Source: Candidatus Hydrothermarchaeota archaeon
Lineage (GTDB): Archaea > CAYFZR01
NCBI GenBank assembly: GCA_046760505.1
Contig: JBHIEG010000006.1
Span: 1 to 64,000, forward strand
Direction: 5' to 3'
DNA length: 64,000 bases
The position numbers were made by a program, and so were the translations under genes. Under the pieces are notes generated by a model. It was given only the letters and a program-made list of their open reading frames with translations, was not told the DNA's origin and ran no database searches. This document shows positions 3,126 through 42,609 of this stretch, piece after piece. The stretch's first letter is position 1. Each line of letters starts with the position of its first letter.

Positions 3126-4268
3126 ATGAATTCGATAAAGTATATCGCTGTGAATATCGTTGAAACCTTGCTTAGGGTTCTTCCGTTTCCATGCAAAACA
3201 GGTTTGATCAAAATTGGAAATCCAAGTAGAGATTCACCGGTTTTTCTTACCTGCAATTATCATCTCACTGTAGAAAGGGTAAAAAGAGCATTGAAGGGTA
3301 TGAATGCTTATCTTCTTGTTGCTAACAGCAGGGGAATTAACGTATGGTGTGCATCTACGGGAGGGCATTTCACCAATCATGATGTTATTTCTGCTTTGAA
3401 AACCAGCGGAATCGAAGAACTTGTTAGCCATAGAAATGTGATAATGCCTCAACTCGCTGCAACAGGCGTTGAGGCTAAAATTATAAAGAAAAAGACAGGG
3501 TGGAACGTTATATGGGGCCCGGTATATGCGAAGGATATTCCTGCTTTTATTGAAAAAAATAACAAGAAAACTCCGAAAATGCGAGAAGTGGATTTTCCCT
3601 GGACTCAACGTATGGAGATGGCTTTTTCTTGGGCATTTCCTGTTTCTTTCATTCTCTCTCTCATATTGATTCCCATCTGGCGTGAAGCCATTTTTCCTCT
3701 TGTTTTCTTGGTTTGGGGCCTTTCTCTCCTGATCTTCATATCTTTTCCTATTTACAGTAACTTGCTAAGTATTGAGAAGAGGATTGCCCTCATTTTCTTC
3801 AATTTTGGAGGATTCCAGCTTGTCTTGTGGGTGATTACCATCTTTGGAATTGTTTTTTACTCCTTTTTAACTGGAGATTTCAATTGGAAATTCATTTTTC
3901 GATGGATTTTTATCTCATTCGTTGTCGTTGTCATGTTAAGCATTGATTTATTGGGAAGCACTCCTGTATACAAGAGTAGCTTGCACGACGATAGATATTT
4001 TAGAGTAATTATCGATGAGAATAAATGTAAGGGCACTGGTATCTGCGAGCAGGTTTGTCCGAGGAATTGCTACGAGTTGAATGGGGAGCAGCATGTTATA
4101 AGAATGCCACGAGCAGATAAATGCGTGAAATGTGGAGCATGCATCGTTCAATGTCCGTTCGATGCGTTGTACTTCAAAACTTTGAAAGAGGAGATAATAC
4201 CTCCTGAGACAATCAGAAAATTCAAGCTAAATCTGATGGGCAAGCGGACTGTTGAAGTCAGCGGTTGA
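3126..4268 (+). CDS. Fused HgcAB-like corrinoid/membrane/ferredoxin protein
   Basis: CdhE/HgcA-like domain (SPVFLTCNY..T, GINVWCASTGGHF, MPQLAA.G, WGPV), about 4-5 TM helices, C-terminal ferredoxin (CKGTGICEQVCP, CVKCGACIVQCP). Confidence 0.85.
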   Translation: MNSIKYIAVNIVETLLRVLPFPCKTGLIKIGNPSRDSPVFLTCNYHLTVERVKRALKGMNAYLLVANSRGINVWCASTGGHFTNHDVISALKTSGIEELVSHRNVIMPQLAATGVEAKIIKKKTGWNVIWGPVYAKDIPAFIEKNNKKTPKMREVDFPWTQRMEMAFSWAFPVSFILSLILIPIWREAIFPLVFLVWGLSLLIFISFPIYSNLLSIEKRIALIFFNFGGFQLVLWVITIFGIVFYSFLTGDFNWKFIFRWIFISFVVVVMLSIDLLGSTPVYKSSLHDDRYFRVIIDENKCKGTGICEQVCPRNCYELNGEQHVIRMPRADKCVKCGACIVQCPFDALYFKTLKEEIIPPETIRKFKLNLMGKRTVEVSG

Positions 4269-4400
4269 TACTCTGGAATAGATAAGACTGAATTTTCGAA
4301 TTGTGAGGAAAACAAGAGAAATTAAACCAATAAATTTACCCCGGGAAATGGGATTCAAGGGAAAAATCCCAATCACATACAGATGTTAAACTATAATTGG

Positions 4401-4835
4401 TCACCACAAAGATAACAATATCAATATATTTCCATTTCTAGTTGATATCGGTTTTCTTACGGTCACAACATCCTTAAATACAGGAATTTCAGATCCTTCT
4501 TCTAAAAATAGTTTACCTTCTCCAATTATTTTTAAATTAAACTGCATATCTAGGGGAAAATTATCTAATGCATATTCTAATGCAAGCTTTGCTGTGTTTC
4601 TGTCTGTGTTCTCGTAGGAAATGACGATTGTATCTATCAAGGTTTCATCCGGGATAGATAGATCTTTTTTTAATTCTAACGGGGTAGAAATATAGCCTAA
4701 AGCATCTAACGTAGAGTATCCGAGGTCCTGTCTATAGAGATACGGATACTTGGAGGTATATAGGGAAGAATAAAGCATTATGGAAAAAGAAACTACGAGT
4801 ATAAAGAGCAATCCTATCACTTGAAAGGCCCTCAT
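4401..4835 (-). CDS. Pilin-like protein (N-terminal hydrophobic helix)
   Basis: MRAFQ + ~20-aa hydrophobic helix followed by a beta-rich domain; last gene of the T4P-like operon. Confidence 0.5.
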   Translation of the reverse strand: MRAFQVIGLLFILVVSFSIMLYSSLYTSKYPYLYRQDLGYSTLDALGYISTPLELKKDLSIPDETLIDTIVISYENTDRNTAKLALEYALDNFPLDMQFNLKIIGEGKLFLEEGSEIPVFKDVVTVRKPISTRNGNILILLSLW

Positions 4836-5221
4836 AAGATCACCGTTAATCTCCCAGGCAAAAACCTAGAATCTCCTGTGTGAATACAAACTAGCCAAGA
4901 AAGTTTGATTCCTTCTTTATTTTCCCCCCATCTTTGAGTAATTCTCTTGCCGTCTAGGTAATACTCTAGGATAATTGATTTTCCTTTTACCCTAGATTTA
5001 TCCTCCAACTTGCAGGATTCAAGTATAATAGAACGGCTGGAATTGTACCCAGAATCGCTGTAGGCCTTTAAAAAATCACTTTTTATCTCTACAATCCTAT
5101 CGTATTCGCTCCGGATTTTCTCTCTCTGGAGCTCGATCTTGACTACATTTACCGCTACCGCAATCAGCATGATTACAACAACTACAAGTATTATATTACC
5201 GTAGACATCTTCAATATCCAT
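4832..5221 (-). CDS. Pilin-like protein
   Basis: MDIED + hydrophobic helix; overlaps both neighbours. Confidence 0.5.
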   Translation of the reverse strand: MDIEDVYGNIILVVVVIMLIAVAVNVVKIELQREKIRSEYDRIVEIKSDFLKAYSDSGYNSSRSIILESCKLEDKSRVKGKSIILEYYLDGKRITQRWGENKEGIKLSWLVCIHTGDSRFLPGRLTVIL

Positions 5222-5618
5222 CGGAAACTACCTCAAATTTATCGTATCTCTTCTTTATCTTTATTCTTGAATTACTCTTTATTTTACTGCAATTAACATG
5301 ATAGGAGATTGGAATGTTTACTGTATCACCATTGCTTAGGTATATGGAAACTAATGAATGAGAAGTGTTTTTGGGAACTATTTCTAATTCATAAGTGTAT
5401 CTGAAGGCTTTTTCTGGCAATTCGTATGATACCTCCACGTCAGATGGAGCGACATTCATGCTCGTGAGTATGTCTTCCAGCGAATTGGTGATGGAATAGC
5501 ACGCCTCATAACTTCTCCAAAGGATGTATCTGCTCCCTCCCTCCAAGGCGAATGTAAACAAAAGCAGTGTTACTGCGACCACAAACACAGTTCTTATACC
5601 AATCTCCATTGGTATCAC
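5211..5618 (-). CDS. Pilin-like protein
   Basis: MIPMEIGIR + hydrophobic helix; YELP..Y.Y.L.I pattern as in archaeal minor pilins; GTGA start/stop overlap. Confidence 0.55.
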   Translation of the reverse strand: MIPMEIGIRTVFVVAVTLLLFTFALEGGSRYILWRSYEACYSITNSLEDILTSMNVAPSDVEVSYELPEKAFRYTYELEIVPKNTSHSLVSIYLSNGDTVNIPISYHVNCSKIKSNSRIKIKKRYDKFEVVSDGY

Positions 5619-5764
5619 TTGCCTATCACAAAGGATGCGTTCCTCAAAGCCTCTTTTCCCACTTCAACGGTTTCAGCCCCTAAAGTTCTAATCACGTAAA
5701 TCACAAAGGCTAAAACGACTACTCCAATCACTATGGTTATTCCAACTCTGACACCAGCCTCCAT
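5615..5764 (-). CDS. Small (49 aa) Flp-like pilin candidate, absent from the ORF track
   Basis: MEAGVRVGITIVIGVVVLAFVIYVIRTLGAETVEVGKEALRNASFVIGK*; SD GGGGTGA; TAATG overlap with the upstream gene; fills the gap exactly. Confidence 0.7.
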   Translation of the reverse strand: MEAGVRVGITIVIGVVVLAFVIYVIRTLGAETVEVGKEALRNASFVIGK

Positions 5765-7479
5765 TAGATCACCCCCTTTATCAGTAGATAAATTAAAATC
5801 GGAAGCGAAAACATCGTTTGCGTTATAGAATTATATTTTCCAAGCGCTACTTGTAAGGTAATTCTATCTCCTTCCTCCAGTTCATTTATAACCCATACAA
5901 TAATCGTGGAAACAAAAAATAAAGTTATACATAAAATAACAAACATGAAAATTGGATCAGGAATCGAAAAATAAATTAAACTCCTCTCTCTCAAAACCGA
6001 GTTCAGATGGAAGAACATTCCCACAAACAACAACATTAAAAAAGATAGTACGGGGTTTATTATTTTTAAGAATGTTAAATTGCTCGTGGTTTCTAACTTC
6101 AACTCTCTTGAAAGATGATCAATGGACTTAAATGTTTCATGTAATCTTTTCATCGAATTACTGGCAGATACAGAATCTAATTCAATCAACAAGTCTGCAG
6201 TATCAGATATCATCTTGGCACTCTTTGAGTCTCTCAGTTCGGGAGATGCCGTAAAGAGTGCCTTGGTAAAAGTCATATTAAGGTTTTTTAAATTAAATAA
6301 AGTCTGTAAAAATATTTTTTGAATGAATTTATCCGTGAAAATATTTTTTACCTGCTCCAAACCTTTCGTCACGGTCCCATGACCTGACAAAGACTGGGCA
6401 AGTATCAAAGGCATGAGCTGTAAGTTTTGTTCTAACTCTTCGATCCTCCTTTTACTTTTTAACTGACCTTTAGAAGGCAAATATAACAAAAAAATGGATA
6501 TCAAAATCAGAAACAGTGGAACTACAAAAAATGTTCTTACATAAAAGTATGTAAGCGAGCAAAACAAAGTTATCGCCAAAAAAACAAGGAGTCTGGAAAT
6601 TTTGTAATCTTCCCTTTCAATGTATCCGTACGATAGGAGCAGAGGTTTATATCTGAGGAGATAAATGCCGTAGAGAAATATTATTGATGGCAAACCCATC
6701 AAAAAAAGAAAAATGTAAGCAGGAACTGAGAGTTCTCCCCCTATTACACTAAACATCAACGGTCCTATCATCAAAATTACTACGGGGGTTAAAACACCCA
6801 GATAAATATAATTTGTCAAATTATCGGAGAGTATTTTAACTTTTCTTCGATTTTCAAGGCGAATGTCCTTAGTATAATCTTCTATGGCACTTTCAAGCAT
6901 GAAATTCCTCTCATCTTTTTCTTTTACGTTTAATGCAATCAACAATCTTTCTGCAAATCTCCTAGCAGGGGCTGAAATTTTTTCAATTTCGTTGGCAAAA
7001 TCCAGAAGGGCCTCCTCAAAGGTATAGTAGTATCCTTGATTAATTCTAGAAATCGATAACTTTGCACTTTTCTCTAACGGTCCTGAGGAGTATCTTGTCG
7101 CGAATATGAATGCGTTGTATAGGTGGGGATTGATCTTTAGGTATGTCACCATGTCCAAGAAAAATCTTAGAATAACTGGAGAAATATCCGTTTTCTTCTT
7201 TTCTATCATGGATTTCAGGAAAAAAGTAATTATATCAGGTATAAAAATACCTGAAATCCCTAGTGCTCCCAGAATGAGCATGAAAGAGCCTATTAAACAT
7301 CCTGAGAGATCTCTAAATATAAAATAACTAATGGAGGCGAATAGGGTTCCTAAGATTAAAAGAGAGGTTGAGAGGAGAAAGACTAACTTAAAGAAGTATT
7401 TCCTTTCGATTCCAATGCTATCCATTTCCTCAAAAATCTCTCTCCTCCGGGTATTTTTGTAGAATTTCTCAGACAGCAT
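5764..7479 (-). CDS. TadC/ArlJ-like membrane platform protein (two T2SS-F-like repeats)
   Basis: Multi-TM with two cytoplasmic helical domains (..NPHLYNAF.FA...SGPL; ..GTVTKGL..V); directly downstream of the secretion ATPase; start uncertain (7479 or 7533). Confidence 0.7.
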   Translation of the reverse strand: MLSEKFYKNTRRREIFEEMDSIGIERKYFFKLVFLLSTSLLILGTLFASISYFIFRDLSGCLIGSFMLILGALGISGIFIPDIITFFLKSMIEKKKTDISPVILRFFLDMVTYLKINPHLYNAFIFATRYSSGPLEKSAKLSISRINQGYYYTFEEALLDFANEIEKISAPARRFAERLLIALNVKEKDERNFMLESAIEDYTKDIRLENRRKVKILSDNLTNYIYLGVLTPVVILMIGPLMFSVIGGELSVPAYIFLFLMGLPSIIFLYGIYLLRYKPLLLSYGYIEREDYKISRLLVFLAITLFCSLTYFYVRTFFVVPLFLILISIFLLYLPSKGQLKSKRRIEELEQNLQLMPLILAQSLSGHGTVTKGLEQVKNIFTDKFIQKIFLQTLFNLKNLNMTFTKALFTASPELRDSKSAKMISDTADLLIELDSVSASNSMKRLHETFKSIDHLSRELKLETTSNLTFLKIINPVLSFLMLLFVGMFFHLNSVLRERSLIYFSIPDPIFMFVILCITLFFVSTIIVWVINELEEGDRITLQVALGKYNSITQTMFSLPILIYLLIKGVI

Positions 7480-9532
7480 TGAGTATCCAGTCCTCCCATT
7501 TCTCATAGACCTCACTGAATAAGGGCTTTCCAAACTCTTCCTTACTATTTTTCATCAGAACTCTCCAAATTTTATTCGATCTTACCACGAAATCTAGCTC
7601 TAATATAGAATTTTTCTTGTTTTCCAGTTTTATCATTGTTTCGAAGGATTTAGATCGCCATTTCATATAATTAATAGCATCATAAGTCTCTATGTTCAGT
7701 TCATCACATCTTTTCTCTAAGATTCCATTCTTTCTCAGTAGAACATCTTTATTTGGGACCAAATTGCCGTCCTTAATAAAAAATAAAGGCAAAAACCAAT
7801 TTTCTCTTGGAAGTTCCTCTATACCTTTTAACCAATCTTTGTTTATCTCTGATATGCTCAGTACCTTTCTTGTTCTCTTTTCTGTTCCAAAAATTCGGTC
7901 TTTTTTTGTTTGCACAACGAAATCCAGTGATTTGAAAGATTGGGGAGATGCTCCCAAATCTATTACCGTGCGAGTATAAAGCTCCGGTACATCCATCGCG
8001 TGAATGGTAAAGCCTACCTGCCTTGATGCTTCAAGTTTAATGGCCTCAAACACAGGTCTTGCATCTAAGCTCGTCCTGATTTCTGAGTAATATAACTTTG
8101 CATCGCCGGATCTAATTGTGCTCCAGATCGCTTTGTCAGGCAAAATATCGTACCCTTCTCCGCCTAGATTCAAGGCATCAGAAACGTTTTCCTTCACAAT
8201 TCCTTTAAAGTGCTTTGAAAATTGATCGTAGGGAAATTCATTCGTGTCCTCTATGTATATTATCCTCTCAGTGGGGAAGGATTGTCCAACAATACTGATC
8301 AAAAGCGATGTTTTGCCAGAATCTTTTGATCCCAAGATGGCGAACTTCAAATCCACGTAATTCGCGAAATCTAAGAAACTAGCAGCCCAAGGAGACAAAT
8401 AACCCCTTTTTATGAATAAAGGCAGTGTCCAAGGCTTAAATCTGAAGTTTCTGATAGATATGGTAGTTTTTTCCGTAAAAGGGCTTCTTGTAACCATTAT
8501 TCTTGAATCGTTTATCTTTCCATCTAAGATAGGGTGAGAAAGATCTAATGGCCTTCCAATATCATTCTTAAATCTTTCAGATAATCTTATTACTTCATTC
8601 TCTTCCAAATATACGTTCGTTTCCATTGTTCCATAGTCATCGATCTCGACGATAATTGGATTCGAGTAAGGAGGATTTATGTAACAATTCTGGATTACCT
8701 TTAAACTCATTATGGGTTCCAGAATCGAGTATTGGATCCCATTCGTATAGAAATCAGATATTTTTTGAATTCTAGTTTCTCTGTCTATATTTTCCTTATC
8801 TTTTTTTACGCTATTGGATATCAGATCAAATATGTATTTTTTTAAATGATCCTTGCTGAAAATGACTTCTTCCCTAACATTGGTGCATAGTTCTTTGTGA
8901 ACTTTCTTCAACAATTCTATTTCTTCATAAGAAATGTTTAAATCACTTAAAAATATATAGACATAGTGTTCTTGATTTTTTTTAGAGAAATAAATGTTTA
9001 GAGAACCTCCATTAAAGGAAAATTTGTCAACCAAAATGAAATCTTTAGGAACCCTCAGATCAAGGAAAAAATTCGAAAAATAAGGGGTAATATAAAAGGA
9101 AAATTCTTTTGTCTCCATTTTTTCCAGTTCTTCTAGTATATCCTTGAGAATATTCGTATATTTCTTATTGCAGCTTTCGCATAGTTCTGAGGATTTTCTG
9201 ACTGATTTTATATTTAGAGTTTCCCTAATCGCGAATGCTCCCTTCTTGTGGTTCTCCAATATCTCTTCAAACGTCTTTTCTAGAAAGTATTTTCTCTCTT
9301 CATAGCATATATCACAGTCTCCGGTTGTTTTTTCTCTCAAAAATGATTCAATTTTCTTTGAGATATTATCTAGTTTTTTCAAAAAATTTAAATTAAAATA
9401 CTTCTTTTTGTAGTTCTTTTCCAAAATTATGCTATCTTTGTCAAAATTTTCTCTTAAATATTTTAAAGCACACTTCTTGCATTCTTTCTCACTTAAAAGG
9501 GCTGAATTTTCACAACTTTCACAGCGAAACAT
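7469..9532 (-). CDS. Diverged VirB11/CpaF-type type IV pilus assembly ATPase with Cys-rich N-terminus
   Basis: Walker A GSKDSGKTS, Asp box IEDTNEF, Walker B-like LYYSEIR, His box TIHA; N-terminal CESC, CKKC, CDIC, CESC. Confidence 0.85.
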   Translation of the reverse strand: MFRCESCENSALLSEKECKKCALKYLRENFDKDSIILEKNYKKKYFNLNFLKKLDNISKKIESFLREKTTGDCDICYEERKYFLEKTFEEILENHKKGAFAIRETLNIKSVRKSSELCESCNKKYTNILKDILEELEKMETKEFSFYITPYFSNFFLDLRVPKDFILVDKFSFNGGSLNIYFSKKNQEHYVYIFLSDLNISYEEIELLKKVHKELCTNVREEVIFSKDHLKKYIFDLISNSVKKDKENIDRETRIQKISDFYTNGIQYSILEPIMSLKVIQNCYINPPYSNPIIVEIDDYGTMETNVYLEENEVIRLSERFKNDIGRPLDLSHPILDGKINDSRIMVTRSPFTEKTTISIRNFRFKPWTLPLFIKRGYLSPWAASFLDFANYVDLKFAILGSKDSGKTSLLISIVGQSFPTERIIYIEDTNEFPYDQFSKHFKGIVKENVSDALNLGGEGYDILPDKAIWSTIRSGDAKLYYSEIRTSLDARPVFEAIKLEASRQVGFTIHAMDVPELYTRTVIDLGASPQSFKSLDFVVQTKKDRIFGTEKRTRKVLSISEINKDWLKGIEELPRENWFLPLFFIKDGNLVPNKDVLLRKNGILEKRCDELNIETYDAINYMKWRSKSFETMIKLENKKNSILELDFVVRSNKIWRVLMKNSKEEFGKPLFSEVYEKWEDWILNAV

Positions 9533-10058
9533 TACATATACCCCAAATAATGTAGTTAAGGATCGCTAGGAGAGAGAAAGAAAGCAAAATTAATTGGAGT
9601 ATCTGTTTTTTATATTTTCCATTTCTATTTCCGCAGAGCATTCTCTCAAATGTGTAGTGATAAAAAGTAATACCTGTTAAAAGACCTAGTGCAGCCAGAG
9701 ATATTACTGAAACATCGATCAAAACCGGGATCGTTTTTTGTAAAGAAGTTTCCACAAAAAAATCTATTGTCATTAAACTTTCTAGGAGATATCTGTCTTT
9801 CATCAGGGTTGTATAGCAGATGCATGCAAAAATGAAGAGGGAAAACAAAGGTATTGTACCGAAAAAACAGGAGATTATGTAAACCTTAAGAAAATATAAG
9901 ATTAGGGAAGAAGGTGGCTCTAGAATGTTTTGATTTAATATATTGGCTTTTTCTCCTGCAATTATCATTTTCCCAACCAAAAAGAACGTTAGCAGAATCA
10001 GAGCAGGGTATATTTCATTCAAAAAGAAATTGTTTATATCAGCAACCAAATTCCTCAT
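9519..10058 (-). CDS. Hypothetical membrane protein (about 4 TM)
   Basis: Hydrophobic segments; overlaps neighbours in the operon. Confidence 0.6.
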   Translation of the reverse strand: MRNLVADINNFFLNEIYPALILLTFFLVGKMIIAGEKANILNQNILEPPSSLILYFLKVYIISCFFGTIPLFSLFIFACICYTTLMKDRYLLESLMTIDFFVETSLQKTIPVLIDVSVISLAALGLLTGITFYHYTFERMLCGNRNGKYKKQILQLILLSFSLLAILNYIIWGICNVSL

Positions 10059-10449
10059 CTAGTTCCTCCAATTTCTTTTTTATGATGTTTTTGATGTCAT
10101 CATTACCTAAGTCTGATTTTTTCCTGATTAATTGATTGTATCTTTGGAAACCATTTAGTTCTGGAAAAGAAATATGATATGAAATGAAATCTATCTTCAC
10201 CCTGCCTAATTTGAGAAACCTTAAATAAAGGCATGAAATTGTAATTATTAAAAAGTACGAGGTTGAAATTAGGAATAAATCATAAAATAAGGATAATATA
10301 ACTAAAAAAGTACCCAAAAACAAACTTACTATTGTTGAATATATTATCTGGATTTTTTTATCGAGGAAGAGAAATCTGGGATGCTGTGAAAGGATAAAAT
10401 ATGTGATCGATGGAAATCCAATGAGGGGTAAAATACATTTATATTCCAT
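10039..10449 (-). CDS. Hypothetical membrane protein (about 3 TM), first gene of the T4P-like operon
   Basis: ATG at 10449 about 20 nt below a TATA-like TTATATAA; TM helices. Confidence 0.55.
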   Translation of the reverse strand: MEYKCILPLIGFPSITYFILSQHPRFLFLDKKIQIIYSTIVSLFLGTFLVILSLFYDLFLISTSYFLIITISCLYLRFLKLGRVKIDFISYHISFPELNGFQRYNQLIRKKSDLGNDDIKNIIKKKLEELDEEFGC

Positions 10450-10469
10450 GTGGGTGAAACTTACGCCCA

Positions 10470-10500
10470 CTTATATAACACTTTGGTTTGAGTCTGACAA
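10470..10500. promoter_or_regulatory. Divergent promoter region: TATA-like box and GTCTGACAA motif
   Basis: CTTATATAAC at 10470-10479; GTCTGACAA at 10492-10500 is the reverse complement of the TTGTCAGAC seen at 59920. Confidence 0.45.
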
Positions 10501-10510
10501 AGGTGTTGAG

Positions 10511-11320
10511 ATGGCATCTTATCTGATAGCATCATCCAAAGGCGGGAGTGGAAAAAGTACCTTTGCCTGTGAATTCGCATATTATTGCTCAAATATTCTG
10601 AAAAAAAGGACTGTCTTGGTTGATGCAGATATTAAGGCATCCTGTATCAGGATGCTCTTGGGGGAAGTGTTTGATCCTTCAAGGACGCTGACTCATCTCC
10701 TAAGAGAAGATTTAAAAAACATAGAAGATATCCTGTATACATCTAAATACGCGAATTTATCCTTAATAATGCCTTCAGAGAGAGCAGACCTCAAATTTTT
10801 TTCTAAAAATAAAAAGATGATCGATCTCCTGTACTGCCTTAAGGATATTTATGACGTGGTTATAACCGATGCACCACCGGATTTAGAACAAGTTTATAGG
10901 CTCTCTATTCCGGTAGATTCTTTAATAGGCATTATAAGACCTGATTTACAATCAATACTTCATGCACCCCAACTTGCTAGCATTCCGATCACTTTAAAAC
11001 AGGTTTATAGAAGCGAATATACGGTAAGCACTGTATTTGAAGGATTTGTTGTCTCTATGTATGATTCTTCAATAAAAGAACAAAATGAGATACTTAAACT
11101 CTTGGAAGATCGTGGATATAGCTTTTTGGGGAAGATATCATTTGACAAAAACGTACAAAAGGCTCAACTAAAGAGCAAAACTCTATTAGAAATGAGGAGG
11201 AAGAGCAAAGCCGCTAAGGAGCTGGAGAGAATATTCATTGATCTTCTAAAAATAAGACCTGAAAGAAAAAAAACAATAAAAAAACTCTTCAGGAGGGAAA
11301 AAATTGATAGAAAAAGTTAG
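10511..11320 (+). CDS. MinD/ParA (TadZ-like) ATPase
   Basis: Deviant Walker A SSKGGSGKST, VLVDAD, YDVVITDAPP, LGKISFD..V..A. Confidence 0.85.
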   Translation: MASYLIASSKGGSGKSTFACEFAYYCSNILKKRTVLVDADIKASCIRMLLGEVFDPSRTLTHLLREDLKNIEDILYTSKYANLSLIMPSERADLKFFSKNKKMIDLLYCLKDIYDVVITDAPPDLEQVYRLSIPVDSLIGIIRPDLQSILHAPQLASIPITLKQVYRSEYTVSTVFEGFVVSMYDSSIKEQNEILKLLEDRGYSFLGKISFDKNVQKAQLKSKTLLEMRRKSKAAKELERIFIDLLKIRPERKKTIKKLFRREKIDRKS

Positions 11321-11720
11321 GAGATTGAAAGATGCAGGGTTTACAGATGATCAGATTAGTATCATACTCAAAGAGGATGGGCTCGATGAAAAAAATATCA
11401 TCAGTTTATTGAACGAGGAGAGAAGAATAAGAAGTGAAAAGAGACAAGAAAGAGAATTTGAGGAGTTACTTGAATACGCGATGGAGATTGATCCTTCATC
11501 GATCTATGTTCCATTAAACGAGAATGAAAGCCTCGATAAAGCGGTAATAAAACAAATGATAAGAAAAGAATTAGAAATCGAACTTGAAAATAAAATTAAA
11601 TCTATTTGCAAGGAGGAATCAGAGATACAAGCCTCAAAGCTTTGGGAAGAAAAGATCAGACCTGCTTTAACTGAAATAATTGAAAAACTGGAGGTTGATG
11701 GCCTTGGAGGAAAAGATTAG
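11304..11720 (+). CDS. Hypothetical helical/coiled-coil protein
   Basis: N-terminal L..AGF.D..I...L...GL motif, charged helices; overlaps the MinD gene. Confidence 0.65.
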   Translation: MIEKVRRLKDAGFTDDQISIILKEDGLDEKNIISLLNEERRIRSEKRQEREFEELLEYAMEIDPSSIYVPLNENESLDKAVIKQMIRKELEIELENKIKSICKEESEIQASKLWEEKIRPALTEIIEKLEVDGLGGKD

Positions 11721-11826
11721 GGAAGAACTGGCAAACCATCTTAAGTTAATAGAGTCTCTGATATCAAGGATTGATGCTCTAGAGAATACGGTTGTGGAAC
11801 TGAGGAAAAAAATCGAGGAGAAATAA
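11698..11826 (+). CDS. Small 42-aa coiled-coil protein, absent from the ORF track
   Basis: SD GGAGGT + MALEEKIREELANHLKLIESLISRIDALENTVVELRKKIEEK*; heptad pattern; TAATG overlap with the next gene. Confidence 0.6.
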   Translation: MALEEKIREELANHLKLIESLISRIDALENTVVELRKKIEEK

Positions 11827-12245
11827 TGGAAGGAATAGTTCCAAAGGTAATAATTGCCGGTATTGTTCTGATATTTGCTTTTCAAGGCTTATTTTTGGTT
11901 TCTAGTGAGTATAAAGCGAAAAAGAATGAACAGAAAGTCTTCGAAGATTTTTCTTTTAAACTGAACATGATTTTTATGGGGGATAAGAATTCTACGGCCT
12001 TTGTTGATATAGAAATGTATGAAGGATGGAAAGATTTAAAAATAAGAGGGAATGAAATGATTTTCTTGTATCCAGATCATGTCTCAATTTATGATCTTTC
12101 ATATAAAGTTTGTACCCCAGTAACGATCTCAGGAGGCATGTACAGGATAACAAATGAAGGAAATTGTTTTTCTGTAAAAAGTGGAGAAGATATCGGTGAC
12201 CAGCCCGAAGATTTACATAAAGATGTTAATGTTAATTATATTTAA
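11826..12245 (+). CDS. Pilin-like protein
   Basis: MEGIVPK + hydrophobic helix, then beta-rich domain. Confidence 0.5.
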   Translation: MEGIVPKVIIAGIVLIFAFQGLFLVSSEYKAKKNEQKVFEDFSFKLNMIFMGDKNSTAFVDIEMYEGWKDLKIRGNEMIFLYPDHVSIYDLSYKVCTPVTISGGMYRITNEGNCFSVKSGEDIGDQPEDLHKDVNVNYI

Positions 12246-12361
12246 AGCTTTTGTTTCATAAATATTTAAAAATTTAGGGAAAATTAATGGAAAATAATAA
12301 TATTTTTAGCATTTTTTATTTAAACAAAAAATATTTCCAAAATGGTTTTAACATAAATATG

Positions 12362-13525
12362 TTAAACTATTTCCCTGATCAGCTTTAGGAGATCCGGGTG
12401 TCTTATAACCGTTTTTATTATTTCCTTCTTGCTTTTTGGAAGATCTTTTTCTGAAAGGGCTTCAGCAATAATATTTAGCCCTTCGTCGGATAACTTCTCG
12501 ATCGACTGCTTTATTCTCAAGGATCTCTCCATGTTTTTTCCTATAGTTTTATACCATTCCTCTTGGTATCTTGAGAGAAATTTCTCGGAAGTATCGTTAT
12601 TTTCTATTGCCTCAGAGGCAACTTTTCCCGCTATTTTACCGCAAGTCATAGAAGAGTAAATTCCTCCCCCTGTTAGGGGATCTATTTGTCCTGCTGCGTC
12701 TCCAACTATCAAAGCTCTCTCTGTATAGGTCTTTTCTAAAGGACCTGAAACAGGGGTTCCTCCAACGTTTAACTCTATTGGAACTCCTTTTTTTAGATTT
12801 TCATGGGAATCAATAAATCTCCTTAAATAATTCAGTGCAATCGTATTACTCTTTCTTACACCGAGCCCTACGTTAGCAACATCGTTTCCCTTTGGGAATA
12901 TCCATGCATATCCTCCCGGGGCAATTTTATTTCCAAAGTAGAAGTATAAGATGTTTGGATCTTCTAAATCTACTCCTACCATCTCAAATTGTACATTAGA
13001 TGTCATATCTCGAAGTTTGCTTGTGTCAATACCCAGCCATCTAGCAACCTTAGATTCAACGCCGTCTGCTCCGATTACCATCTTGGTCTCTATTTCTAGG
13101 GGCTCTCCGAAATGAGAGGCTTTCACTCTCAGGCAGTTGTTTTTATATTCTATTCCCAGAGCGGCTGTTTTTACCATTAATTCAGATCCCGCTCTCACCG
13201 CGAGGCTTGCAAGATATTTGTCGAATATTTTTCTCTCCAAGACGAAACCCTGTGTCTCCTTCCATACTCTGCTTATTCTTTTTCCGTTCGGCGCGTGTAG
13301 ATAAAATCCTTTAATTTCCGAGCAGATCCATCTTTTTTCTATTGGTATCTCTAATCTTCTGAATGTGTTTATGCTTGTTCCTTCTGCGCATCTTTTTGGA
13401 GCGCCAATTTCCTGCCTTTTTTCCATTAGCAGTACGTTTAATCCCTGTTCTGCAATCGTCTTGGCAGAGATAGAGCCCCCAGGACCCGCACCGATTACTA
13501 CTACGTCATATTCTCTATTTTCCAT
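12362..13525 (-). CDS. Digeranylgeranylglycerophospholipid reductase (GGR)
   Basis: YDVVVIGAGPGG, KRCAEG, PGGYAWIFPKG, VGDAAGQIDPLTGGG; start reassigned to MENREYD. Confidence 0.9.
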   Translation of the reverse strand: MENREYDVVVIGAGPGGSISAKTIAEQGLNVLLMEKRQEIGAPKRCAEGTSINTFRRLEIPIEKRWICSEIKGFYLHAPNGKRISRVWKETQGFVLERKIFDKYLASLAVRAGSELMVKTAALGIEYKNNCLRVKASHFGEPLEIETKMVIGADGVESKVARWLGIDTSKLRDMTSNVQFEMVGVDLEDPNILYFYFGNKIAPGGYAWIFPKGNDVANVGLGVRKSNTIALNYLRRFIDSHENLKKGVPIELNVGGTPVSGPLEKTYTERALIVGDAAGQIDPLTGGGIYSSMTCGKIAGKVASEAIENNDTSEKFLSRYQEEWYKTIGKNMERSLRIKQSIEKLSDEGLNIIAEALSEKDLPKSKKEIIKTVIRHPDLLKLIREIV

Positions 13526-13529
13526 GCGA

Positions 13530-13697
13530 TTACCCCAGAGATATTGCTCCGACAGGACAGATTTTTTCGCATATAGCACATTCTTTACAATCTTCTTCAT
13601 CGACAACCACGAAGGTTTCTACCAACTCAAGAGCAAGATATGGGCATACTCCTACGCATGCTCCACAGTAACAGCATTTTCTCCTGTTAACATTCAC
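13530..13697 (-). CDS. 2[4Fe-4S] ferredoxin, absent from the ORF track
   Basis: GTG start; CCYCGACVGVCP and CKECAICEKICPVGAI; immediately upstream of GGR. Confidence 0.9.
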   Translation of the reverse strand: MNVNRRKCCYCGACVGVCPYLALELVETFVVVDEEDCKECAICEKICPVGAISLG

Positions 13698-13707
13698 CTC
13701 TAACACC

Positions 13708-14229
13708 TCAGAATGTTCTGATGAATACCATAGAGAATATATTTGTGGTTGCGTGCGCCACTATTGGAGTAACTATGTTCTTTTTCCACTCAAAGAGTAA
13801 ACCAAGTATCAAACCTAAAAAAGTTGCGCCTATAACTTGAGGAACGTTAAAGTACCCGAACCAATGTACCAATCCAAAGAGCAATGAGGCTGGAAACAGC
13901 CCGATCTTGGGCTGTAAAAACCCCCTGAATAAGAGCTCTTCTGAGGGAGCTACCACAAAAATATTGAGGAAAAATATATCCATCAATCCCAGTTTCTTAG
14001 ATAGCTCAACCGCGATTTGGTTCCTGAATCCTACTTTATCCAGAGATATGGAAAGTAAAGCAAGAGGTATTCCTGCGGCTAGGCCCAAAATAATACAGGA
14101 AAGCATATTCTCCCTTGTTATTCCGATTAATCTTGGATTTTTCGTGTAAAGAATATATATAATCGGCGGAACCAGAAGAATAGCAGCCTGTAGTATCAGT
14201 GCTTGGACTATCACTTCTCTTGAGAGCAT
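13708..14229 (-). CDS. CPBP (CAAX/Abi) intramembrane metalloprotease
   Basis: EELLFRG, FGLVH, AHATTN motifs. Confidence 0.85.
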   Translation of the reverse strand: MLSREVIVQALILQAAILLVPPIIYILYTKNPRLIGITRENMLSCIILGLAAGIPLALLSISLDKVGFRNQIAVELSKKLGLMDIFFLNIFVVAPSEELLFRGFLQPKIGLFPASLLFGLVHWFGYFNVPQVIGATFLGLILGLLFEWKKNIVTPIVAHATTNIFSMVFIRTF

Positions 14230-15455
14230 TACTCAAACTCCATCAAACTCTTCTGAGCCTCACCGTAGAACTGGACATCAACTACCTGATTGAAAAATAT
14301 CTTACCGTACTCTCCTCCCCCTCCAGGGTAGATAGAGAATTTGCCTGTCCTAAAAGCCTCTATACATTCTCCTATTCTTTCATCTGTGACCTTCTTCAAT
14401 TCTTCTATCGGAACGTCTATCAAAACAGAGATTTCGGTTTGAAATGTTTCTATGAGTAGTCTCCACTGCCTTTGAACTTCATTCACATAGGGATTAGAGT
14501 ATCCTAGTGCTATTTGGATTACTTCCGCAAGAGGAGGTATGTAGTGGTAGGGTGGCCTATCTGGAGGATGCTTGGGTTCAAACCAATCTGCCAACTCATT
14601 TATTCTGTCTTCCACACCTTTTTTTATTAAGCCTTTGCACTTTGGGCACTTCATATTAAATTTTAAAGCGTCTTTAAGCCTAAATCTTTGTTTACACCTT
14701 GAACAAGCCGTCAAATGATACTTGCCCAAACGAGGATCGAATCCATAGTTGGCGAGAATCCCCTTACCGCTCCTTAAAATTTTTCTAATGGAATCGAATG
14801 AATACTCTTTCAGGTTAAATCTATTGAATTCTCTTCCTATTCTATGTGGCCAGGGGCTGTGAGCATCTGAGTTTGTCAAAAAAACCTTATTTTGCAATTC
14901 TTTTAATCTATCCGCCATTTTTGTATCGGCTGAAAGACCCAACTCTATGAAGTGCACATTCTTCAAGCCTTCTCCATAACAGTGAGATATAGAATTAAAT
15001 TCTTTATAGATAGATGTCCATGGTGTGAAGGCATGGCAAGGTCCAACAATTCCGTCTACGGCTTTTACAATGTCAACTAGGTCTTCTGCATTGATATTTA
15101 TTCGTGGTCTACCATCGTGATCCAAGCTGTTACAGTATTTAGTCAGAATGGACCGCAGTTCATCAACAGAATTGAGATCTGGGAGCAATATTAAATGATG
15201 TACTCTGTTGATGTCTTCAATTTCTACCGTTAATATGAATTTGGTTTTATACCTGGGATGCTGGTATATTCCATTTCCTACGGGAAAGAGAGTTTCTTTG
15301 AATTCGCTGAGCCAGGAACTGTGTAATATATCTCCGCTACCCAAGAGATCGAGACCTTTTAATTCAGCCTGCTCTGCTAGATTGACAAAATTCATTTCCT
15401 TAGAGGTGGCACCCGAGAATTTACCATGAATGTGAAGATCTGCGTTTACTCTCAT
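14229..15455 (-). CDS. Endonuclease Q-like PHP-domain protein (TIGR00375 family)
   Basis: ADLHIHGKFS, HAFTPW, ELGLSAD, NSDAHS, GKYHLTACSRC..CPKC, PGGGGEYG. Confidence 0.85.
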   Translation of the reverse strand: MRVNADLHIHGKFSGATSKEMNFVNLAEQAELKGLDLLGSGDILHSSWLSEFKETLFPVGNGIYQHPRYKTKFILTVEIEDINRVHHLILLPDLNSVDELRSILTKYCNSLDHDGRPRININAEDLVDIVKAVDGIVGPCHAFTPWTSIYKEFNSISHCYGEGLKNVHFIELGLSADTKMADRLKELQNKVFLTNSDAHSPWPHRIGREFNRFNLKEYSFDSIRKILRSGKGILANYGFDPRLGKYHLTACSRCKQRFRLKDALKFNMKCPKCKGLIKKGVEDRINELADWFEPKHPPDRPPYHYIPPLAEVIQIALGYSNPYVNEVQRQWRLLIETFQTEISVLIDVPIEELKKVTDERIGECIEAFRTGKFSIYPGGGGEYGKIFFNQVVDVQFYGEAQKSLMEFE

Positions 15456-15459
15456 CGAT

Positions 15460-16239
15460 TCACCCAATGTAACGGAGATCTTCGTCGGTCTCTATTTCTT
15501 TGTGTGCGGCTTCGAGTGCCTTTTTTTGCATCTCGTATATTCGAGATAGTGTTTTTTCAGCCTCTCTTGCCCTGTTTTCGAGTTCTTCCAGACCTATCTC
15601 TATATTAAGGATTTTGGTCAGTACCTCTAAAACTGCTTTAGCAGACTTTGCATCTACCAAGTAGCCAGATGTCTCGCCCATCAAGCATACGCCATTCATT
15701 CCTCTAAGTTTGCCAATGCCAAGAAGGAGGCCAGAAGCCCCTACTATACCGCCTCTTTCGTCCTCACTTTTGAAGTTGATACCGTATTTTTCCATCTCCG
15801 CTATCAAAGAGAGATCTGTTGCGGCGCCAAATACCCTTGGCTTTTTTACAATCCTCCCTGTACCATAGCCTCCTAGAGTGAATATTTGCTTTGTATTATA
15901 TTTTTCAACTAGATCTAGAATCTTGGTTACGATATCATATTGGCCCTGAGGGGTAAGTCCTTGAGTATTTCCAACGACGAAGATAAGATCTGGATGGCTA
16001 CCTCCTCCTTGGTAGTAGTAGAATTCATTGGACATCATTTCTATGGTGCCATCTTCCTTCACCAGAACTTGAGGCGGAAAATCTGGCGAAAAGAGTTCTG
16101 CAAACTTCTTTGCTTTGATTTCGTTTATCATGTGTTCTGCAGCTAGTTTTCCAACGTGTCCTATTCCGGGCAAACCCTCTATCAATATTGGATCTTTCAA
16201 CTTTGGTTCGTAATATACCTTAATTATTGCCTCTTTCAT
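15460..16239 (-). CDS. Proteasome assembly chaperone PAC2 family
   Basis: [36 protein letters not shown]. Confidence 0.9.
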
Positions 16240-16399
16240 ACCAATCGCTTTCCTTTTTTAGTCTTCTTCTATACTTCCCATACGGGTCCTCTGGTGAGAA
16301 TCTTGGAGGATGGGGGTTAGATGTTTCTTGGTTGCAGACAGGACATTTTTCCATTAGTGTATATGTATTACACCTCTTACACTTCTTTAGCAACTTCAT
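16220..16399 (-). CDS. nop10: H/ACA RNP protein Nop10, absent from the ORF track
   Basis: [22 protein letters not shown]...[16 protein letters not shown]; canonical position after aIF2-alpha. Confidence 0.95.
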
Positions 16400-16402
16400 A
16401 CT

Positions 16403-17200
16403 TTAATCCTTCTCTCTCAAAAATTCTCCCTTTCCACCAAGACTTTCTATTATATTTATTGCCTCCTTTGCTACACTGCTCAACGAATTCTCGGCTATTT
16501 TATAATCGGGCGCTGTTATCACTATTTTATACTTTGGTGCCCCTACATAGTATATATCTACATTTACTTCCTCATCATTGTATTTGTCTCTGGCATGGAT
16601 CAATGCCTCTTTGATGTCATCGATTCCTCTTGGCCTAGGAGAGGAGAGCTTCAGAGTGCCAGATATCTTTACATGAGGGGGCTCGATATTCTCTCTGGCA
16701 ATCTTTACTAGATTGTCCTTCCAATCTTTTGATATTTTGAGGTTTAAGAAGGCGTCATAACCAGAAATCGCTATTTCTTCCAATGCAGTATAAAGGTCAT
16801 CATATTCATTCATCAGCGGATATCCTACTTCTCTGTAACCTGTTTCTAAATCCTTTCCAAGAAGATTAGCAACGTATTCCAGCAGTTTTTCAGCTTTCTG
16901 TTCTCTTTTCCATTCTTGAATCTTTTCCTGCCTCTGTCTTTCTGTTATCCTCTTCAGAGAGAGATCTATGTGGCCTTTTGAAGGATCTACGTTGAGAACT
17001 TGGGCCACAACTTTTTGCCCTTCCCTTACGTGATCCCTGATATTCTTTACCCAGCCTGATGAAACTTCTGAAATATGAATTAGCCCGGACTTTCTTTCGT
17101 ATTCATCCAGTTCTACAAAAGCTCCGAAGTTTGCTACTCTAGTTACGGTTGCGATTACTAATTCACCTTCTTCTGGCCATTTGTACTTTTTTCTAACCAT
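16403..17200 (-). CDS. eif2a: Translation initiation factor 2 alpha
   Basis: PEEGELVIATV, S1 domain GLIHISEVSSGWVKNI, YYVGAPKY. Confidence 0.95.
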   Translation of the reverse strand: MVRKKYKWPEEGELVIATVTRVANFGAFVELDEYERKSGLIHISEVSSGWVKNIRDHVREGQKVVAQVLNVDPSKGHIDLSLKRITERQRQEKIQEWKREQKAEKLLEYVANLLGKDLETGYREVGYPLMNEYDDLYTALEEIAISGYDAFLNLKISKDWKDNLVKIARENIEPPHVKISGTLKLSSPRPRGIDDIKEALIHARDKYNDEEVNVDIYYVGAPKYKIVITAPDYKIAENSLSSVAKEAINIIESLGGKGEFLREKD

Positions 17201-17204
17201 GTTT

Positions 17205-17390
17205 TCACTCCAATATTTCAATGACCTTGGTTTTTACCTCTGCTTTTCCTCCCGTGGGTTCAGCCAATACCTTGTTGCAGATTATGCACCTTATCAGGGT
17301 GCTGGCGCAACCGAATATTACCTGCTCATTACCACAGTCCATGCACTTTACCCTTAAGAACCTGCTCTTCGGTTTTGGTATGACCTCCAT
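17205..17390 (-). CDS. rps27e: 30S ribosomal protein S27e
   Basis: [20 protein letters not shown]...[13 protein letters not shown]. Confidence 0.95.
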
Positions 17391-17400
17391 CTTTGACACC

Positions 17401-17679
17401 TTAGTCCACGAGTTCCAGTCTCTTTGTCCTGAACCCCTCCCTCGTATGGGCTTTTCCACATTCCTTGCACCTGTACCTCAAACTAACTTTTTTCGTTGGT
17501 TTTTCTCCAGATGGCAAGGCTCTCGGAAATCCTCCATATCCGCTCATCACTCTTCTGAACTGCCTTTGGCCCCACTTTAATTCACTTGCCTTTCTCTTCT
17601 TTACCTGTTCAATTTCATGAATTGTGTGTTTTTTACAGTAGGGACAGTGTGTACGTCTTGATTTCGGCATCTTAACCAT
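17401..17679 (-). CDS. rpl44e: 50S ribosomal protein L44e
   Basis: [31 protein letters not shown]. Confidence 0.97.
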
Positions 17680-17683
17680 GTTT

Positions 17684-18304
17684 TCACCTCAACTTTATCT
17701 CTTCTGCTAAGCCTCTTTTGATGAGGGGTTCTGCATTAGATAATGGTAATATTGCTATGTCCTCTGGTTTAAACTCCCCGTACGTTTTGCCATCTATACC
17801 CACTATTTGAGGTATGTATTCAAGCACACGAATCGCGACCTTTGGGATAGCAGATAAATTTTCGTTTTCTTCCTTTAAATCTTTCTCTGAGCTTTCTTCT
17901 TTTATTTCCTCAGGTTTTGTATACCCTTCGAAGATTTTCCTGCGGTGAATTTTTAGGTTTTTAACAATCTCCCTATATATCTCCTTTTCTTCCGGAGTCA
18001 TGCTGGATACATCGGATTCTTCGACTCCACCCCTCACATCTGCTAGTGCCTTGAAGAGTATCTTACGTTCTCTTTGCTCATATATATCTTTTATTATTTT
18101 TTTTGCGTTTCTGAGTTCGTCCTCTAGCATCTCGGTTTCTACTGTTAGATTTCCTTCCTTTATCCTTTTAGAATATTCATCAGACAAATTTTTTATGTAC
18201 TCCATAGCGAGCCTATAAAATTCCGGTGGTAAGGTGTATAGCCTTCTGGATTCTTTTTCCCTAGTTTTCAACTCCCTTAGCTTAATTATTTCCATTTTTT
18301 TCAT
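17684..18304 (-). CDS. DNA replication GINS subunit (Gins51-type)
   Basis: EK....L..LP..FY, R.RKI, C-terminal [22 protein letters not shown]; next to priS. Confidence 0.85.
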
Positions 18305-42348: not shown

Positions 42349-42609
42349 GATTTCACCTCTATTTTGACAACAATCTATTTTAATCAAGTTATTGATACCA
42401 AGAAATTTTTCATAAGAGTATTTTCCGTTTATTATGATATAAAAATAGTATTGTTTATTCAAAAGTGTGTGAGAAACTCAAGGTTTCCTTGAAAAATATT
42501 CCTCATTCGTTGGGAAACATTATTCTCAAAAAACCTTATAACCAAGTTATATGTTATAGTTTAAAATATAATAGTGCCGAAGAAAACCTGAAAAAAGATG
42601 GGGGAGAAA

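Follow-up and report, generated by a model that had tools for sequence, protein, structure and literature searches.

A very diverged type IV filament locus of a Candidatus Hydrothermarchaeota archaeon, with a 4F-like motor and subunit-like proteins of short, mostly non-basic N-termini

This report concerns a cluster of genes resembling the machinery of type IV filaments (T4F), located at positions 4,401 to 12,245 of a 64,000-nucleotide (nt) stretch of DNA from a Candidatus Hydrothermarchaeota archaeon (GenBank assembly GCA_046760505.1, contig JBHIEG010000006.1, positions 1 to 64,000 of the forward strand), the whole of which we call the window. An earlier reading of the letters of this stretch, referred to here as the original prediction, had described two divergent operons encoding a secretion ATPase, a fused TadC-like platform, two membrane proteins, a MinD-like ATPase, coiled-coil proteins and five small proteins with an N-terminal hydrophobic helix, and 12 of the 12 open reading frames (ORFs) were found in place on two divergent strands, with H143, G179, F687, E589, D49, C135, B129 and A144 on the minus strand and I305, J138, K48 and L139 on the plus strand (Table 1). 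We tentatively favor, while holding it slightly less probable than an even chance, the reading that the locus is a complete, intact and very fast-evolving T4F cluster of the 4F/DPANN-type lineage, in which degenerate class III leaders are cut by a peptidase encoded elsewhere.

Shine-Dalgarno sites lie upstream of D49, G179, B129, A144, L139, J138 and the ATG of K48; that of D49 is strong (GGGGGTGAT), and the start of D49 overlaps the stop of E589 by 1 nt. The exact 49-residue D49 protein is present in the public protein collection, where D49 has no other match. E589 probably starts a few codons inside its maximal ORF, and for gene C the ATG at 5609 is the most likely start, giving MEIG in agreement with the stored 132-aa protein and with the orthologue; this shorter form is called C132 below. 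In the region 10403-10511, H143 and I305 read as maximal ORFs share 68 nt head to head; their likely starts at 10449 and 10511 leave about 60 nt between the divergent gene sets, which is little room for two promoters. A bacterial promoter/terminator scan was uninformative, and Rfam matched nothing but the tRNA.

Table 1. Genes and repeat copies of the locus, with members of a small single-helix family found in related loci (coordinates of these last refer to the locus named; a slash marks the boundary in front of the hydrophobic helix).
Feature	Coordinates	Strand	Description
A144	4401..4835	-	one N-terminal helix; start MRA/F; GGTGAT Shine-Dalgarno site
B129	4832..5221	-	one N-terminal helix; start MDIEDVYG/N; Pfam Tad (TadE/G-like) at E=0.11 only
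C135 (C132 from ATG at 5609)	5211..5618	-	one N-terminal helix; MEIG/IR; Pfam DUF7266 at E=0.22 only
D49	5615..5764	-	49 aa, one helix and short tail; MEAG/VR; candidate small major subunit
E589	5764..7533	-	fused double-T2SSF platform (TadC/PilC/FlaJ type); 8 predicted hydrophobic segments
F687	7469..9532	-	secretion ATPase; four CxxC pairs in first 121 residues, then catalytic motifs
G179	9519..10058	-	membrane protein, 4 hydrophobic segments; GGAGG Shine-Dalgarno site
H143	10039..10470	-	membrane protein, about 2-3 hydrophobic segments, charged C-terminal tail; start perhaps ATG 10449
I305	10403..11320	+	MinD/ParA-like ATPase; likely start ATG 10511 (269 aa); basic amphipathic C-terminal stretch
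J138	11304..11720	+	acidic helical protein; residues 2-39 match family beside ATPase in related loci
K48	11680..11826	+	short heptad-like helical protein; probably 42 aa from ATG 11698; GGAGGT Shine-Dalgarno site
L139	11826..12245	+	one N-terminal helix; start MEG/IVPK
Direct repeat, left copy	4375..4394	+	20 nt; 6 nt past A144 stop
Direct repeat, right copy	12351..12370	+	over last two codons and stop of geranylgeranyl reductase gene (12362-13606, minus)
Single-helix family member, L040	7906..8070		45-56-aa family
Single-helix family member, L052	10457..10627		45-56-aa family
Single-helix family member, L060	13118..13288		45-56-aa family
Single-helix family member, L068	13320..13457		45-56-aa family
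Single-helix family member, L078	13349..13489		45-56-aa family

The window holds two T4F loci, this one at 4.4-12.2 kb and a canonical one at 55.9-63.9 kb with an ATPase matching Pfam T2SSE (E = 3.1e-36), two T2SSF genes and Pilin_N proteins. The identity of F687 as a secretion ATPase was evident from matches to the NCBIfam models TadA (9.1e-17) and FlaI (2.1e-15) and, among PDB sequences, to A. fulgidus GspE (2oap, 2.8e-15) and CpaF (1.2e-13), with no match to Pfam T2SSE at E<=1. Its motifs comprise a Walker A (GSKDSGKT, residue 401), an Asp box (EDTNE, 428), EIR (484) and TIH (509), and the residues of the Walker A, Asp box, Walker B and His box are invariant in a 21-sequence alignment including F687; CxxC motifs stand at residues 4, 18, 73 and 118. 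For E589, the link to the T2SSF family is indirect but consistent as judged by sequence: the protein reached Pfam T2SSF at E=0.22 only, yet it matches platform proteins of DPANN archaea at up to 1.1e-12, the best of these (locus L058) itself passing Pfam T2SSF at 1.5e-7, and its two halves align in order to the two canonical TadC genes of the window (E of 4.8e-5 and 1.8e-3). These family matches and motifs bear out the description of a strongly diverged T4F locus with an ATPase and a fused TadC-like platform, the word "diverged" being fair because Pfam recognizes only I305 above its cut-offs.

I305 matched Pfam CbiA (7.8e-14), NCBIfam minD_arch (3.5e-18, below the cutoff of that model) and, with its best score, a ParA-like PHROG family of phages and plasmids (8.7e-25); it has the motif KGGSGKS at residue 46. 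Residues 2-39 of J138 matched the N-terminal domain of a family of about 224 aa encoded in DPANN loci (hhalign E=4.8e-5, probability 68%), this being the best of 150 hhalign comparisons between locus proteins and 15 DPANN locus families. K48 had weak matches to coiled-coil families (E of 0.002-0.09), and a crude heptad score did not discriminate for J138 and K48. G179 and H143 matched no family in Pfam and NCBIfam scans; the idea that the two together represent a split or diverged prepilin peptidase was dropped, as neither an A24 match at E<=1 nor a GxGD-type motif was found.

A search with F687 in a collection of 5.8 billion proteins yielded 52 matches at E<=1e-3 among 7,999 scored candidates: F687 itself, one relative of 77% identity, and proteins of 454-769 aa that are at most 32% identical. 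The named relatives come from Thermoplasmata, Woesearchaeota, Aenigmarchaeota and Nanoarchaeia. A profile-guided scan of species-representative genomes gave 607 pattern matches, 523 of which encode a relative of F687; the analysis went on with the best 80 loci. In 55 of these, clustering showed the ATPase gene to be followed by a fused platform of 589-806 aa, and coiled-coil-like proteins of about 131 and about 224 aa occur in 41 and 40, respectively. Many of the DPANN loci carry arrays of small N-terminal-helix proteins with MKG/, MRG/ or KRG/ leaders, together with ORFs of 38-60 aa located after the platform gene, in the same position as D49. When 87 ATPases were placed in a tree, the branch shared by F687 and its 77% relative measured 2.35 substitutions/site and was sister to the whole DPANN/Thermoplasmata crown of 82 rows.

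Among plasmids, tblastn picked out pHTUR04 of Haloterrigena turkmenica (Htur_5119-5122), which encodes a 648-aa ATPase related to F687 (phmmer E of 2.9e-35), followed by a 604-aa platform related to E589 (4.4e-10). The supplement of Makarova et al. lists this platform as arCOG01814 "subclade_4F", the ATPase as "Clade_4", and the two neighboring small genes as "subclade_4F" pilins of arCOG10216 and arCOG02981. Section 12 of that paper (PMC4858521) describes a Cys-rich N-terminal ATPase domain as typical of subclade 4F and places the clade in nanoarchaea as well, with pilins that the authors did not find. In a tree of 34 rows, rooted on bacterial CpaF and containing long branches, the pHTUR04 ATPase, F687, its 77% relative, 25 DPANN/Thermoplasmata rows and the protein P0003 form one clade with a support of 100/100; the second ATPase of the window and three haloarchaeal ATPases of Clade-2 type fall into the other (100/99). 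The check by ATPase phylogeny that had been proposed thus put F687 with the 4F ATPase of pHTUR04, and we tentatively place F687 and E589, by sequence, in a group with subclade 4F of Makarova et al. and the large set of DPANN/Thermoplasmata relatives; weighing against the 4F part of this placement, the assignment depends on a single reference ATPase, and the tree was without references for the archaellum, for clades 1 and 3 and for the rest of clade 4. On pHTUR04 (L081), the 4F-type ATPase/platform pair lies at 12501-18621 beside a DEAD/DEAH helicase, ParA and a DUF87/HerA-like gene, and in the Thermoplasmata locus L021 DUF87 (6574-7875) stands beside the ATPase. These neighbors offer hints of a possible DNA-handling context in part of the family.

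The five small proteins A144, B129, C132, D49 and L139 each have exactly one hydrophobic segment, located at the N-terminus, as had been predicted. Going upstream from each of the five starts, an in-frame stop is reached after 3-22 codons and before any ATG, GTG or TTG; no upstream start is possible, and the short N-termini are therefore real. The segments in front of the helix comprise 2-8 residues (MRA/, MEG/, MEAG/, MEIG/ and MDIEDVYG/), with the residue directly before the helix being Gly in four of the five and Ala in one. At the -2 position, a basic residue is found in A144, the sole subunit of the five to combine a basic -2 with an Ala at -1, and an acidic one in L139; the other three do not conform to class III. 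Of the 327 maximal ORFs in the window that reach 40 aa or more, two start with ME-x(0,1)-G, both in the locus, with gene C as a third if read from its ATG. With respect to the claim that these N-termini are acidic and devoid of a basic leader, the quoted sequences proved correct, short and mostly non-basic, but MRA/F in A144 is a minimal basic leader, gene C most likely starts at MEIG, and Gly or Ala precedes the helix in all five. The accompanying observation on the pilins at 57-60 kb was accurate, with E[KR]G/V present in 4/4.

The orthologue of gene C (P0054, 79% identical) starts MELG/TR, and that of L139 (P0056, 75% identical) starts MEVG/IVPK and continues with the same IVPKVIIAG; a partial relative of L139 (P0058) is 41% identical. 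As a side observation, a highly repetitive protein of 938 aa (P0057) matched L139 at an E of 1.7e-15 via 15 short stretches, which we judged to be a low-complexity artefact and did not use. L139 and its orthologue differ in the spacing before the Gly (MEG or MEVG) and agree in what follows it, the pattern that a leader boundary should give.

Leaders of the usual kind are common in the more distant loci. In the best 80 loci, [KR][GA] precedes the helix in 130 of 205 single-N-terminal-helix proteins, [DE][GA] in 8 and another Gly in 8, with none of these in 59 (many of them probably spurious ORFs). Two haloarchaeal PilB4-type loci encode DUF7287, DUF7288, a weak DUF7261, DUF7266 and DUF7289 after the platform gene, with leaders reading MRA/Q, ..ERA/Q, ..ERA/A, ..DRA/V, ..NRG/Q and MTDRA/. 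Homologous loci, then, do not share the lack of leaders that the original prediction had asked about, as evidenced by the 130 of 205 and by the canonical haloarchaeal sets. A candidate precedent, the MDFG start of a Halobaculum DUF7287 protein (L082, 12824-12973), was rejected since the start is probably mis-called: ..SRA/QTT lies upstream in frame and matches the Haloferax mediterranei orthologue. The arCOG02981 pilin of pHTUR04 (..IEG/LPIR) and three Thermoplasmata neighbors (..E[MT]IPIR) resemble the E-x-G-[VI]-R of D49 and gene C. The N-terminal motif E-[GMT]-[IL]-P-I-R-[LM]-[IV]-I recurs in proteins encoded divergently from the ATPase, in these three Thermoplasmata loci and, as the arCOG02981 protein, on pHTUR04 (L021 5974-6546, L041 6266-6481, L043 3661-4302 and L081 7557-8084), with an acidic residue where class III usually has K or R. 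Separately, T4F loci of Woese- and Pacearchaeota encode a conserved family of 45-56-aa single-helix proteins (Table 1), lacking a [KR]G leader and ending in a DFFKN-like motif, which, from its sequences, may be the DPANN counterpart of D49.

Relevant statements in Pohlschroder and Esquivel 2015 (PMC4371748) give G, A or S at -1 as general and a charged -2 as important in archaea, with D-A/V-S sites in the Haloferax PibD substrates PilA1 and PilA3 and D-S-A-V in PilA2; a 2012 review (PMC3387779) refers to a positive residue at -2. The notion of "pre-trimmed, peptidase-independent pilins" finds no support in these points: A144 has R-A/F, L139 has E-G/I, and the 2015 review tabulates acidic -2 residues in PilA1-3, which PibD processes.

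Structural comparison gives a moderate and indirect pointer in the direction of pilins. ESM Atlas models of A144 and B129 (predicted local distance difference test values of 0.79 and 0.80) have as neighbors clusters of archaeal hypothetical proteins of 133-175 aa from Hadarchaeota, Thermoplasmatota, Woesearchaeota and Nanobdellota, the B129 model reaching template modeling (TM) scores of 0.70-0.73 to archaeal clusters. Next come DUF7287 (feature scores 0.86 and 0.90), DUF7288 (TM 0.67) and DUF7285 (TM 0.59); bacterial sensor-kinase periplasmic domains are also among the neighbors. Because DUF7287 and DUF7288 both lie directly after a haloarchaeal platform gene, these look-alikes suggest, at the level of models, that A144 and B129 may be of a pilin-like class. 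No literature on DUF7266, DUF7285, DUF7287 or DUF7288 turned up. One PDB match of C132, to a trimeric fusion of the CFA/I fimbrial subunit, was weak, reaching an E of 5.5e-4 only when summed and with no single stretch passing, and was treated as chance.

Based on these data, we surmise that the hexameric ATPase F687 would dock on the platform E589, and that the platform, powered by ATP, would lift helix-anchored subunits from the membrane, building them into a pilus that is thin or a pseudopilus that is short. D49 would be the likely bulk subunit, with A144, C132, B129 and L139 as minor, priming or tip subunits, and the MinD-like I305 together with J138 and K48 may position or regulate the machine. 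The N-terminal segments of 2-8 residues would represent minimal, degenerate leaders of class III type ending in Gly or Ala, presumably removed by a PibD/FlaK-type peptidase encoded elsewhere in the genome.

Several observations weigh against this picture. No similarity of the small proteins to any pilin was found by sequence, as evidenced by: 1) comparison of the five with one another and with the four canonical pilins of the window (36 pairs), in which only canonical-canonical pairs scored; 2) the 150 hhalign comparisons with the 15 DPANN locus families, which gave no pilin link, a weak match of D49 to DPANN family 14 being a helix-only alignment; 3) 25 comparisons with five haloarchaeal DUF families, which gave no similarity; 4) an hhalign probability of at most 1.2% to a set of arCOG02981-like 4F pilins; 5) scans of Pfam, NCBIfam, PHROGs and PDB sequences without a pilin-family match, including no Pfam DUF7382, DUF7311, Pilin_N or Flp match. 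At the N-termini, only A144 in the locus passed a scan for [KR][GAS] followed by a helix, and a cut after the Gly in D49 and C132 would put Arg at +2, unusual for a filament core. N-glycosylation sequons number 4 in 544 residues of A144, B129, C132 and L139, between the 9 in 4011 of cytoplasmic proteins and the 26 in 1248 of the canonical pilins plus a neighbor. Positive charges mark the cytoplasmic side of a membrane helix (the positive-inside rule). The K and R residues before the helix are fewer than those in the 15 residues after it in all five proteins (1/2 in A144, 0/5 in B129, 0-1/2 in C132, 1/2 in D49 and 1/4 in L139), vs. 5, 5, 2 and 5 before and 1, 1, 4 and 1 after in the four canonical pilins; a set of 104 canonical-leader, pilin-like proteins from DPANN loci averages 2.86 before and 1.91 after, with 19% having fewer before than after and 4% having at least four after. 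Because of this reversed bias, an N-in/C-out topology is uncertain, especially for B129 and L139. Finally, no Peptidase_A24 match was found among the 74 window ORFs scanned, locus included; the locus is indeed without a prepilin peptidase, as originally stated. The absence of the gene is uninformative, however, because the canonical pilus locus of the window also lacks one, and a passage in PMC4371748 has it that most archaea use one peptidase for all substrates.

Those charge data speak for the first alternative, which we regard as doubtful, though likelier than the other rivals, namely that the T4F motor is real and some or all of A144, B129, C132 and L139 are unprocessed monotopic stator, alignment or scaffold proteins in the manner of FlaF/FlaG or FlaX, some of them perhaps with a cytoplasmic domain, and with true pilins supplied in trans. 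Under such a scheme, the reversed bias in 5/5, extreme in B129 and L139, and the lack of a class III motif in four of five by simple scan would both be accounted for. There is precedent in part of PMC4425475, where FlaF is described as monotopic and pilin-like, without a class III signal and outside the filament, and FlaX as a membrane-anchored ring; "System 2" loci (PMC13705601) provide earlier examples of pilin-like proteins that have no class III signal, and section 11 of Makarova et al. (PMC4858521) mentions ATPase/TadC modules with pilins encoded elsewhere. Four canonical pilin genes are even present in the same window, but they have their own adjoining ATPase and platform genes. The alternative also leaves aside the Gly or Ala exactly before the helix in 5/5 with a conserved ME-x-G, the R-A/F of A144, and the position of the genes directly after the platform, as for the pilin arrays of DPANN and haloarchaeal loci; D49, moreover, is too small for a scaffold with a domain.

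A more radical possibility, which we consider unlikely, is that the locus follows a different N-terminal rule, M-E-x-G-hydrophobic-R with the charge after the Gly, meaning either leaderless polymerisation or a cytoplasmic/membrane scaffold of opposite topology new to T4F, and in either case on a small repeat-bounded cassette. To our knowledge, described T4F systems are all taught as requiring a class III leader and a dedicated peptidase. The leaderless form of the idea, as put forward in the original prediction, would have genuine pre-trimmed filament subunits inserted and polymerised without any prepilin peptidase, and to us it appears quite improbable. The N-termini with just 2-8 residues before the helix are not extendable, basic residues are absent before the helix in 4/5 or stand after the Gly (VR, IR, IVPK), the 74 window ORFs include no A24 peptidase, and the N-terminal motif is conserved in orthologues, all of which would be expected of such subunits. 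However, MEG and MEVG vary in front of a mature-like sequence that does not, which resembles a leader boundary, distant homologous loci have normal leaders (130/205, and DRA/, ERA/ and NRG/ in haloarchaea), the canonical locus with its ordinary pilins is likewise devoid of a peptidase gene, and a non-exhaustive literature search gave no precedent for assembled leaderless type IV pilins.

The origin of the locus is a related issue. Its guanine-plus-cytosine (GC) content is 0.346 vs. 0.3875 for the window, the lowest of any 7.8-kb stretch, with 1.8% of windows as low, but the GC at third codon positions (GC3) of its genes, 0.27-0.51, overlaps the 0.31-0.45 of other genes; the sliding-window check thus agrees with the description as AT-rich, modestly so, and the genes are not distinct in GC3. 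The dinucleotide signature distance of the locus is 54 vs. a median of 33, a value reached in 4 of 57 windows, of which three overlap the locus and one lies near the other pilus locus. A 20-nt direct repeat, the copies of which are 18/20 identical and 7,976 nt apart, brackets the locus; nothing else in the 64-kb window matches its pattern with <=3 mismatches (0.02 expected), and when the two intergenic regions were shuffled 1,000 times, 18/20 was reached twice, in a test chosen after the repeat was seen. The location of the right copy over the 3' end of the reductase gene is like an att-site duplication. Together, the repeat and the atypical dinucleotide signature support the earlier view that the locus was probably acquired horizontally; insertion as a cassette is plausible, not proven, and would probably have occurred by the 3' end of the geranylgeranyl reductase gene.

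Going further, one may take the locus for the cargo of an integrated element serving DNA transfer or uptake or cell-cell mating rather than adhesion, or for a silent relic. We give this the least credence, even with the repeat overlapping a gene's 3' end, the low GC and atypical signature, the best score of I305 being to a phage/plasmid family, the DNA-handling neighbors of the pHTUR04 and Thermoplasmata relatives, and the single close relative of F687 in 5.8 billion proteins: neither an integrase, relaxase, helicase, HerA nor replication gene was found within 4395-12350 by Pfam, NCBIfam and PHROGs, no tRNA is near the locus, and GC3 is not distinct. The intact state of all 12 ORFs, together with the 75-79% identity of three products to their orthologues, argues against a decaying relic.

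The remainder of the window is that of an archaeal chromosome, with an operon (cdh) for carbon monoxide dehydrogenase/acetyl-CoA synthase (CODH/ACS), PCNA, both primase subunits, GINS and PolB; it also encodes thermosome, aIF2-alpha, TFIIB, purine synthesis, a multihaem cytochrome c with a Sec-type signal (42598-43758) and an S-layer-like protein (40518-41444). Along with the cdh operon, the last two offer hints of a host resembling Methanosarcinales or ANME. In the canonical pilus locus, a pair consisting of a PIN-domain toxin and a MazE/AbrB-type antitoxin (59986-60656) lies between the pilin genes and the two TadC genes. The gene adjoining the diverged locus (3126-4268) encodes an unusual membrane Fe-S protein, comprising a region like the C-terminal part of CdhD (3.2e-18), a central portion that is long and hydrophobic, and a 2x[4Fe-4S] ferredoxin domain at the C-terminus.

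Returning to the reading as a T4F cluster with degenerate leaders, a conserved, subunit-like set with acidic or neutral N-termini of 2-8 residues in an otherwise complete machine offers a test of how strict the archaeal leader rule is, of what a minimal leader may be, and of what sets topology when positive charges are lacking. With this locus, the 4F/DPANN-type motor family also reaches an archaeon that is metabolically complete and methanogen-like, which may help explain the widespread uncharacterized DPANN loci. If the subunits are ordinary PibD substrates, it would be one more fast-evolving archaeal pilus.

Among known systems, the archaellum offers in FlaF/FlaG (ArlF/ArlG) monotopic proteins with a pilin-like N-terminal helix and a small domain and, in the part of PMC4425475 concerned, no class III signal; unlike the archaellum, the locus gave no archaellin or FlaF/FlaG family match in Pfam and NCBIfam and has neither FlaH nor FlaCDE/X. 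It resembles Tad/Flp and Epd ("System 1") pili in having a TadA/CpaF-type ATPase, a platform, a MinD-like analogue of TadZ, and a subunit of about 50 aa without a globular head next to several larger pseudopilin-like proteins, but in contrast to these it has a single, fused platform gene instead of two, D49 shows neither a Flp/EpdE motif nor a Pfam Flp match, and the locus has no TadV/EppA peptidase, secretin or other outer-membrane parts. The CdiP pili of Thermoplasmatales (PMC12448462) were considered and set aside as not of this family, being Aap-like with a split platform. With haloarchaeal PilB4-type loci ("System 2") the locus shares an extended ATPase and a single platform gene followed by about five N-terminal-helix proteins, and there are look-alikes of A144 and B129 (DUF7287, DUF7288 and DUF7285), a weak DUF7266 match of gene C, and an MRA/Q start in the DUF7288 protein there. 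The descriptive System 2 traits of Sivabalasarma and Albers 2026 also fit, namely the extended ATPase, dependence on MinD, and pilin-like proteins with and without a class III signal. However, the System 2 ATPases belong to the other clade, with the second ATPase of the window; the small proteins share no sequence similarity, and the haloarchaeal leaders are canonical after start correction.

Likeness is also found with "cluster 2" DPANN archaea, for which the relevant portion of Hamm et al. 2024 (PMC11291902) reports type IV pilus-like loci with coiled-coil proteins. Both have adjacent CpaF-like ATPase and TadC genes, divergently encoded helical proteins (the family matched by residues 2-39 of J138, in 40/80 loci), arrays of small N-terminal-helix proteins and tiny ORFs of 38-60 aa after the platform gene. 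In contrast, F687 is sister to that ATPase family and outside its crown group, the MinD gene is part of the locus here, the DPANN subunits mostly carry MKG/ or KRG/ leaders, and the host of the window, unlike DPANN archaea, has CODH/ACS, purine synthesis and full replication genes. Unlike the 4F locus of pHTUR04, the locus has no homologue of the pilin families arCOG02981 and arCOG10216 (no Pfam DUF7382 or DUF7311 match), and it has a MinD, two polytopic membrane proteins, five private small proteins and a branch of about 2.4 substitutions/site. Like that locus, it has a long ATPase with an extra N-terminal Cys-rich domain and one fused platform gene (604 aa there, 589 aa here), and the 4F pilin ..EG/LPIR, with an acidic residue before the Gly and an Arg shortly after, echoes the ME-x-G-[VI]-R found here. 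Although the locus had been proposed as a candidate for an undescribed system, its ATPase and platform group with the 4F reference and the DPANN/Thermoplasmata family, and it is an extreme, private variant of a described T4F lineage, not a new kind of machine.

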